From NCBI GenBank assembly GCA_964016885.1, contig OZ024754.1, positions 40,362,001-40,426,000 of the forward strand: a stretch of 64,000 nt of DNA. The letters are read 5' to 3'. The position numbers and the translations under genes are program-made. This DNA comes from Eledone cirrhosa. Lineage: Eukaryota. Below the pieces are notes generated by a model. That model made no database searches. It was not told the DNA's origin and worked only from the letters and a program-made list of their open reading frames with translations. Positions 45,212 through 46,179 of this stretch are shown here, piece after piece (within the stretch, counting starts at the first letter, position 1; each line of letters begins with the position of its first letter).

Positions 45212-45662
45212 CTGTGGCCCACATAGTAACTGAGAATTCGCCTTCTAAAGTTTTGATCTGTACTTGCTTTTGTTCCCATTTCTTAGTTGCAGAGTTAGTG
45301 TCTAGCGTCAGTTCACCACAATTTACAGCCGATGTCGATATCATATTTCGTGATTTGTTGGCTCGTCTCTTACCACCTTTGCCTTTCCGAGTGATGGTTG
45401 CTTCTTCCGTGGATATTTCAATCTCTGGAGCTGGTACGGGGATGCTGTCAGCGTACACGAGGTTCGGATCACCAACCACCTCCTCACGAGTCTGCAGAAC
45501 AATCTCTTCTTGGGCCGCTTCAGGTAATGGCTGGAGAGCTATCATAGGTTGCACTTCGACTGTATCGTCTGTTGTTTCGACAGTTTCAATAGGCATTTCA
45601 ACAGGGATAGATTCCACCTCAACCTCTTGGATCTCTACTTCTGATCCTATAACCGACGCCAT
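45212..45662 (-). CDS. YY1: YY1 exon 1 (acidic N-terminus plus REPO domain)
   Basis: [22 protein letters not shown]...QPMIALQPL...LQTREEVVG...[25 protein letters not shown]; donor gtttgt at 45211; 451 nt, phase 1. Confidence 0.96.
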
Positions 45663-46097
45663 TTTGACTGCTTTCTTTCTATGACGCTTAATGCTACACA
45701 CAAGTCGGAATCTCACTAACAAGACCACGTGACACATGCATATTACACAGTTACACATACACAAACTAAAGCTAATGAATATTCATGAGTCAGTTGATGC
45801 TGCTGCTGTTGCTGCTATTACACATACACAAACTAAAACTAATGAATATTCATGAGCGAGTTGCTGCTGCTGTTGCTGCTAATTATGAACTTGCAGTTTC
45901 TATCACTTAGAACTCATCTATTGAAGATAGCGGTTAGTAAAATATCTTCGCTCTTTCAACACTTTCCTTGATTGCTATTATCTGAAATTATACAATTTAA
46001 AAAAAAAAGTTTTCCTTTCCTTTTTTATGATTTTATTTAACTTTTTCTTTCATCTTTCTTTTATAACATTTCCTCAGGATTTAGCCGATCTGTAATT
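45663..46097. promoter_or_regulatory. shared bidirectional promoter/5'UTR region of YY1 and DEGS
   Basis: 435 bp between divergent ATGs. Contains E-box CACGTG (45726), a ~67-bp tandem duplication (45751-45881) with ATGAATATTCATGAG in each copy, and a probable DEGS 5'UTR intron 45933-46077. Confidence 0.75.
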
Positions 46098-46179
46098 ATG
46101 GGTGCTAAAGTTTCTAGGAAAGATTTTGAATGGTCTTACACTCAGGAACCACATGCTTCGCGAAGGAAAGCAATAATGG
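46098..46179 (+). CDS. DEGS1: sphingolipid delta(4)-desaturase, coding exon 1
   Basis: [27 protein letters not shown]+G; donor gtaagg; 82 nt, too short for the ORF track. N-terminal MG myristoylation motif. Probably co-orthologous to DEGS1/DEGS2. Confidence 0.95.

Follow-up and report, generated by a model that had tools for sequence, protein, structure and literature searches.

The window, a 64-kb stretch of octopod DNA, contains complete genes for YY1 and DEGS, and both are spliced in public contigs. The two genes lie head-to-head. The start codon of YY1 occupies 45662-45660 on the minus strand, the ATG of DEGS begins at 46098 on the plus strand, and 435 bp lie between them. The original prediction had given the same positions, and had also described the locus as compact next to its kilobase-long introns, with no transposon between the starts. 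Both descriptions held: the first introns span about 4.7 kb in YY1 and about 11.9 kb in DEGS, the gap sequence matches neither the rest of the 64-kb window nor any Rfam family, and the sequence as read contains no transposon-like repeat. Transcripts of YY1 and DEGS were both found in run X24 of the window's organism.

Coding exon 1 of YY1 (45212..45662, minus strand) comprises 150 codons and extends from the acidic N-terminus to the REPO motif. It is 100% identical to its counterparts in Octopus vulgaris, O. sinensis and O. bimaculoides and 98% identical to that of Argonauta, and it is spliced to exon 2 in contigs of runs X24 and X5. The start codon overlaps a YY1-type site, as it does in 13 of the 16 loci compared. 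The remaining coding exons were located within 21709..40502 on the minus strand by tblastn with Octopus and Argonauta YY1, which gave approximate boundaries. They lie at about 40502-40343, 38142-38071 (alternative), 35858-35802, 35258-35100, 34301-34131, about 33415-33359, 23100-23059 and 21732-21709. The REPO motif, the four GLI-Krueppel fingers (the zinc fingers were detected by Pfam) and top matches named YY1 identify the gene as a YY1/Pho orthologue. The alternative exon (38071-38142, minus strand) falls between the spacer and the fingers and is common to the Octopus and Argonauta models; these models also have the three small exons (33359-21709, minus strand) that lengthen the C-terminus past the fingers. 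Convergent with the 3' end of YY1, an uninterrupted frame of 162 codons (9804-10292, plus strand) matches the tRNA 2'-phosphotransferase Tpt1/KptA (Pfam PF01885, E 1.4e-34).

The first coding exon of DEGS (46078..46179, plus strand) is spliced to exon 2 in contigs of runs X1, X2 and X5, and its 27 codons from the ATG match Pfam Lipid_DES with an E value of 8.5e-12. Exon 2 (58051..58793, plus strand) carries three histidine boxes and is followed by the last coding exon (61083..61223, plus strand). Exons 2 and 3 are 84-87% identical to octopod DEGS, a level of protein similarity that marks the animal as an octopod other than the species named in these matches. The Lipid_DES N-terminus, the FA_desaturase domain and the three histidine boxes together mark the gene as DEGS, and the nearest database records carry the name DES1-like. 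Intron 1 is full of tandem repeats. Its features at 50478-51998, 52401-53199 and 55662-56210 are a 23-bp minisatellite of 66 copies, a 48-bp array of 17 copies and a frame that resembles a LINE remnant.

A splice acceptor overlooked in the original prediction lies 20 nt ahead of the DEGS ATG. This CAG (46075-46077), with its polypyrimidine tract, would close a predicted 5'-UTR intron at 45933..46077 on the plus strand. A putative part of a non-coding first exon would then occupy 45852..45932 on the same strand, with an uncertain donor; the best nearby candidate in a donor scan was the GT at 45933, which agrees with the consensus at 6 of 9 positions. Isoform X1 of DEGS in Octopus sinensis has an extended N-terminus, which matches first a leucine-run frame at 45852 and next the frame at 46078. 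Furthermore, in a contig of a relative (run X2, of four runs) the sequence after the acceptor is preceded by non-intronic letters; contigs of the window's own species did not bridge the intron. From these relatives, an upstream non-coding DEGS exon in the 45850-45930 region is likely. The 5' exon could also start elsewhere, for example at a distant, unseen exon. Should DEGS use the splice from 45932 to 46078 and begin upstream of 45852, an upstream frame of 32 codons (45852-46095, plus strand) would end 2 nt short of the DEGS ATG. The corresponding AUG of O. sinensis is modelled in frame as the N-terminal extension of DEGS.

Between the two starts we noted two features. One is a 67-bp tandem duplication (45751..45881), likewise overlooked before, with units that are 91% identical. 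Each unit combines a CTG-rich tract with the palindrome ATGAATATTCAT, presumably a POU-type site. The other is an E-box, CACGTG, at 45727..45732, which precedes the YY1 start codon by about 65 nt. In 7 of 16 loci, among them an ant, a termite and two corals, an E-box is found 55-93 nt upstream of this ATG, and it is retained in ant, termite and coral loci without a nearby DEGS. A POU-like 8-mer lies 48-124 nt upstream in 6 of the 16, all spiralian-like. Both patterns were picked after inspection of the sequences, and their background is 0-0.23 per 160 nt.

The contigs of YY1 extend to 45677 in run X24, from the window's own species, and to 45725 in run X5, from a relative, although such contig ends are not equivalent to transcription start sites. 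Run X24 shows zero differences from the window over the YY1 contig end and also contains a DEGS contig. Contig depth at 45786-45917 was left out of consideration because it may stem from unrelated CTG-repeat contigs. With ATGs 435 bp apart and the putative DEGS exon inside the gap, the pair falls within the distance used for bidirectional pairs, that is, divergent 5' ends less than 1 kb apart. Judged by this geometry, YY1 and DEGS likely have one promoter in common. Since the splice acceptor and the putative 5' exon lie within the gap, the ATG-to-ATG distance overstates the promoter length. Given the likely non-coding exon, the shared core would probably be confined to about 45725-45850, a segment that contains the E-box and the two ATGAATATTCAT palindromes.

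Adjacency in other genomes was judged from proteins named YY1 or DEGS, whose accessions, locus tags and scaffold lengths were compared, with accession order as a proxy that carries no orientation. Both genes were named in 28 species: 14 had numbers 1-4 apart, 11 had the genes on the same scaffold and 3 on different scaffolds. The first group comprised molluscs (three Octopus, Lottia with ESO96427/6, Haliotis rubra, Haliotis rufescens, Nucella with 050896/5, Dreissena with KAH3859232/1, and Sinanodonta), a brachiopod (Lingula, XP_013394315/7), an annelid (Capitella, ELU12870/2), two myriapods (Strigamia, T1IWV8/7, and Chamberlinius) and a hemichordate (Saccoglossus, XP_002732622/3, both on a 93-kb scaffold). 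The 11 scaffold-only species (Argonauta, two Haliotis, Mya, Mactra, Mytilus, Tubulanus, Glandiceps, Ptychodera, Anabrus and Schistocerca) have non-positional or unseen numbers and are weak evidence for adjacency. Newer RefSeq numbers far apart despite a common scaffold, as in Tubulanus, Glandiceps, Mya, two Haliotis and the orthopterans, are uninformative and were excluded from the adjacent count. The genes were on different scaffolds in the insects Cotesia, Cryptotermes and Lycorma.

Orientation came from a scan of metagenome contigs, which yielded 80 YY1 exon-1 loci; a good many of these were transcripts or short. DEGS was present in 4 of the 80, head-to-head every time, with gaps of 217 bp in a bivalve (L001), about 140 bp in L004 (where the start is inferred), 417 bp in an annelid-like locus (L008) and 394 bp in the unplaced L023. 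The 5'-5' orientation was thus seen in the window and four contigs, a set without deuterostomes. DEGS was missing from 13 loci with 2.7-10 kb of sequence upstream of the YY1 match. Among these 13, the stretch without DEGS measured 4-10 kb for contigs of ant, termite and a thrips-like insect, 3.3 kb for the coral L027 (its sister locus L025 matches Oculina YY1 at 99% identity) and 2.9 kb for the spiralian-like L016. We also observed a divergent YY1 group (L030-L079, REPO variant TVTVWA) with about 35-45% identity in exon 1; the 1-2 kb available upstream of these loci contained no DEGS, and the intronic cluster described below was mostly missing.

Two unrelated genes are therefore neighbors in distant bilaterian lineages. 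Because Spiralia, Ecdysozoa and Deuterostomia all have the neighborhood, the simplest reading is that the pair was inherited from the bilaterian ancestor and lost in insects. This supports the retention since the protostome-deuterostome ancestor that had been proposed originally, since the lineages in between (gastropods, bivalves, a brachiopod, an annelid, myriapods and the hemichordate Saccoglossus) have the pair. Its absence from insects, the coral and L016 also indicates that the pairing is dispensable. Named cnidarian DEGS were not among the 120 matches listed, the listing of the amphioxus block that contains DEGS did not include YY1, and DEGS was absent from the supplements to PMC9023564 and PMC2871058.

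We take the human pair at 14q32.2, DEGS2 and YY1, to be divergent with a gap of tens of kb, a distance at which a shared core promoter would be absent. That the two are neighbors in human, as originally stated, is supported by published gene lists, in which DEGS2 stands beside YY1 in platypus and human (PMC2042987, PMC3985205), woodpecker (PMC10198635) and mouse (PMC9992842). The same neighbors appear in Xenopus, Callorhinchus and mouse in block 6139 of Robert et al. 2022 (PMC8851819), filed there as 'Vertebrata novel', although other blocks beyond the available part of that source may also contain the pair. The vertebrate arrangement is the same adjacency of a DEGS orthologue and YY1 as in the octopod window. 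What differs is that protostomes and a hemichordate are now seen to have the pair, with hundreds of bases between the genes. Irimia et al. 2012 (PMC3514665) reported an excess of 5'-5' arrangements and of gaps shorter than 1 kb among conserved gene pairs, with a tendency toward co-expression. As far as the available text of that study goes, YY1 and DEGS resemble these pairs in being unrelated genes, 5'-5', less than 1 kb apart and shared by distant phyla; they differ in having been lost in insects and widened in vertebrates, and in being known here by layout. The pair may be among the roughly 600 of that study. It is a real and old member of a described class, the ancient 5'-5' pairs with short gaps. 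A literature search, outside which most subscription papers lie, gave no report of an invertebrate YY1-DEGS pair or of a protostome intronic cluster.

The intronic cluster lies in YY1 intron 1 at 44823..44900 on the minus strand, about 310-390 nt past the exon-1 donor. It consists of six YY1-type cores (GCCAT/ATGGC) and is a predicted autoregulatory element. These six, out of 84 cores in the 64 kb, make it the densest 100-nt segment, the next unrelated segment having 3, and shuffles gave p<=0.005. The sites are ordered ++--- and then an extra +, and the first is imperfect. In vertebrate YY1, Kim, Yu and Kim 2009 (PMC2743690) described an intron-1 cluster with the consensus (A/C)GCCATnTT, and YY1 binding and feedback were established for the mouse and zebrafish sequences. 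The octopod element shares its span of about 100 bp early in intron 1, its flanks and its approximate site number (about five, by a definition of 3-5 sites per ~100 bp), and it has the same arrangement of two sites one way followed by three the opposite way. Unlike the cluster in the available text of that paper, the protostome element has a sixth site, and a weaker version occurs in coral intron 2. The same source reports the cluster in vertebrates, amphioxus, sea squirt and sea urchin and its absence from Drosophila pho, and calls the autoregulatory cluster unique to vertebrates.

We took a census of the cluster in 46 sequences, namely the window plus those 45 loci, out of 80, that were judged genomic. 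Of these, 17 had three or more sites per 150 nt, no farther than 1.5 kb from the donor (p<=0.01 each, 200 shuffles), a count that includes near-duplicates (two from ant, three from termite). The other 29 had no three-site cluster, and most of them belong to one divergent YY1 group. Twelve elements were alignable with a common core. The cluster was seen in the octopod, bivalves, worm-like loci, ant and termite. A profile built from eight protostome elements was searched over 423 kb, with a best reversed-sequence control of 0.66. Its E values were 4e-8, 5e-7 and 0.0017 for the held-out loci L074, L019 and L071, and 0.027 for L023. L071 is a teleost YY1, 95% identical to cyprinids over 41 residues. 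The coral loci gave 0.044 (L022) and 0.27-0.38 (L025-27). In these corals (L022, L025-L027), YY1 has a short first intron, and opposed YY1-type sites occur at the very start of intron 2; their distance from the first donor, about 300 nt, is close to that in bilaterians. Homology of the coral sites with the bilaterian cluster is no more than suggestive.

The first 700 nt of octopod YY1 intron 1 (44519-45240) are about 87% identical in contigs of the relatives X1 and X2, presumed RNA runs. This suggests constraint together with frequent intron retention or DNA carry-over. Few changes fall over the cluster in one relative, which gives a hint and nothing firmer, since it comes from 40 of 141 difference rows.

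The intron-1 element might instead be an RNA hairpin, or a product of convergence and not an inherited DNA element for YY1. Sites 2 and 3 of the window form a perfect 12-bp inverted repeat, short motifs can converge, and the profile scores are modest in fish (0.0017) and corals (0.04-0.4). However, across 14 sequences the variable flanks mostly break the pairing, which holds in 4 of 14 at position -1 and in 6 of 14 at the free N position. The spacer between the sites ranges from 1 to 40 nt, and the element has no Rfam match. The flank variation tracks the (A/C)GCCATnTT consensus given in the available text of Kim et al. 2009 (PMC2743690). Flanks that break base pairing and fit the YY1 consensus favor DNA binding over a hairpin. 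As for convergence, the window and the fish L071 have an identical 17-nt stretch that extends beyond the core and lies about equally far from the exon-1 donor in both. We therefore regard the hairpin or convergence reading as improbable.

Why the pair has persisted can be read in several ways. The original prediction had suggested that a Polycomb-recruiting factor is coupled to ceramide synthesis. In that case the dose of YY1 and ceramide desaturation would have to be co-regulated, and the YY1 feedback element would also set DEGS output. The gap is very short in all five genomes in which orientation was seen, about 1 kb separates the self-site cluster from the likely DEGS start, a distance short enough for it to act, and conserved 5'-5' pairs tend to co-expression (Irimia et al. 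2012, PMC3514665, in its available text). Nevertheless, the coupling found no support, and we think it unlikely: in insects the pair is broken, yet the intronic cluster and the E-box persist, the conserved motifs lie on the YY1 side and persist without DEGS, and the vertebrate neighbor of YY1 is DEGS2. DEGS1, the broadly expressed desaturase, lies on another vertebrate chromosome; a literature search on this point found nothing. Titles and abstract openings of the papers listed for YY1 together with DEGS2 gave no functional link. A broader form of the coupling, in which a cassette older than the protostome-deuterostome split lets the YY1 intronic homeostat (with a cnidarian version too) control the bidirectional promoter and tie desaturase level to YY1 dose in most invertebrate bilaterians, also seems doubtful.

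It might equally be argued that two independent promoters stand back to back, and that adjacency survives passively, since rearrangement breakpoints would seldom fall in an interval of only a few hundred bases. A short gap should by itself lower the breakage rate, the intergenic sequence is unalignable between phyla except for short motifs beside YY1, and the insect loss indicates no absolute constraint on the pair. However, the octopod gap stayed below 450 bp although the neighboring introns grew to 4.7 and 11.9 kb, and the likely non-coding exon of DEGS leaves scant room for two promoters. The gap was also kept in a lineage with large-scale gene reshuffling, as far as the available text of Schmidbaur et al. 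2022 describes it. We consider two separate promoters unlikely as well.

We think it fairly probable, from the arrangement of the sequence, that DEGS rides on the far side of the housekeeping promoter of YY1, and that spacing, not a link between the proteins, keeps the pair. A shared core of roughly 125-250 bp, with the E-box and the POU-type palindromes, would fire both ways. The YY1 promoter would be ubiquitous, with the E-box, the POU-type sites and the intronic feedback cluster as its inputs; the feedback loop is carried over by analogy from the vertebrate experiments (Kim et al. 2009) to invertebrates. Firing in the opposite direction would feed DEGS, which as a housekeeping enzyme of lipid metabolism suits broad expression. 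That the E-box and the cluster persist in insects after the loss of DEGS implies that both serve YY1 first. A break inside the core would harm YY1, a regulator that is essential and dosage-sensitive, or leave DEGS without a promoter, and the tight spacing would thus resist rearrangement. With breakage damaging to YY1 or DEGS, the pair could persist without any functional link between the two proteins.

YY1-DEGS adds one more to several hundred ancient head-to-head neighbors, yet with a compact promoter. The intronic cluster carries more weight than the pair, because few regulatory sequences can be aligned between vertebrates and protostomes: Frith and Ni 2023 (PMC10735318) reported 25 such segments. 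The cluster resembles them as short regulatory DNA that is similar in vertebrates and non-deuterostomes and holds the same place at orthologous genes; it differs in that their intronic elements, in the available text, sit at Coe. In the accessible parts of that paper and its supplement, the YY1 locus is not among the segments; Yy1 is missing from the main text and appears in the supplement as one motif label. Judged by sequence, the protostome cluster corrects the published vertebrate-only claim for the YY1 intron-1 element. Its presence in protostomes would suggest that Drosophila pho has lost it, and a cluster in molluscs, insects and perhaps corals would overturn a vertebrate origin of YY1 self-regulation.
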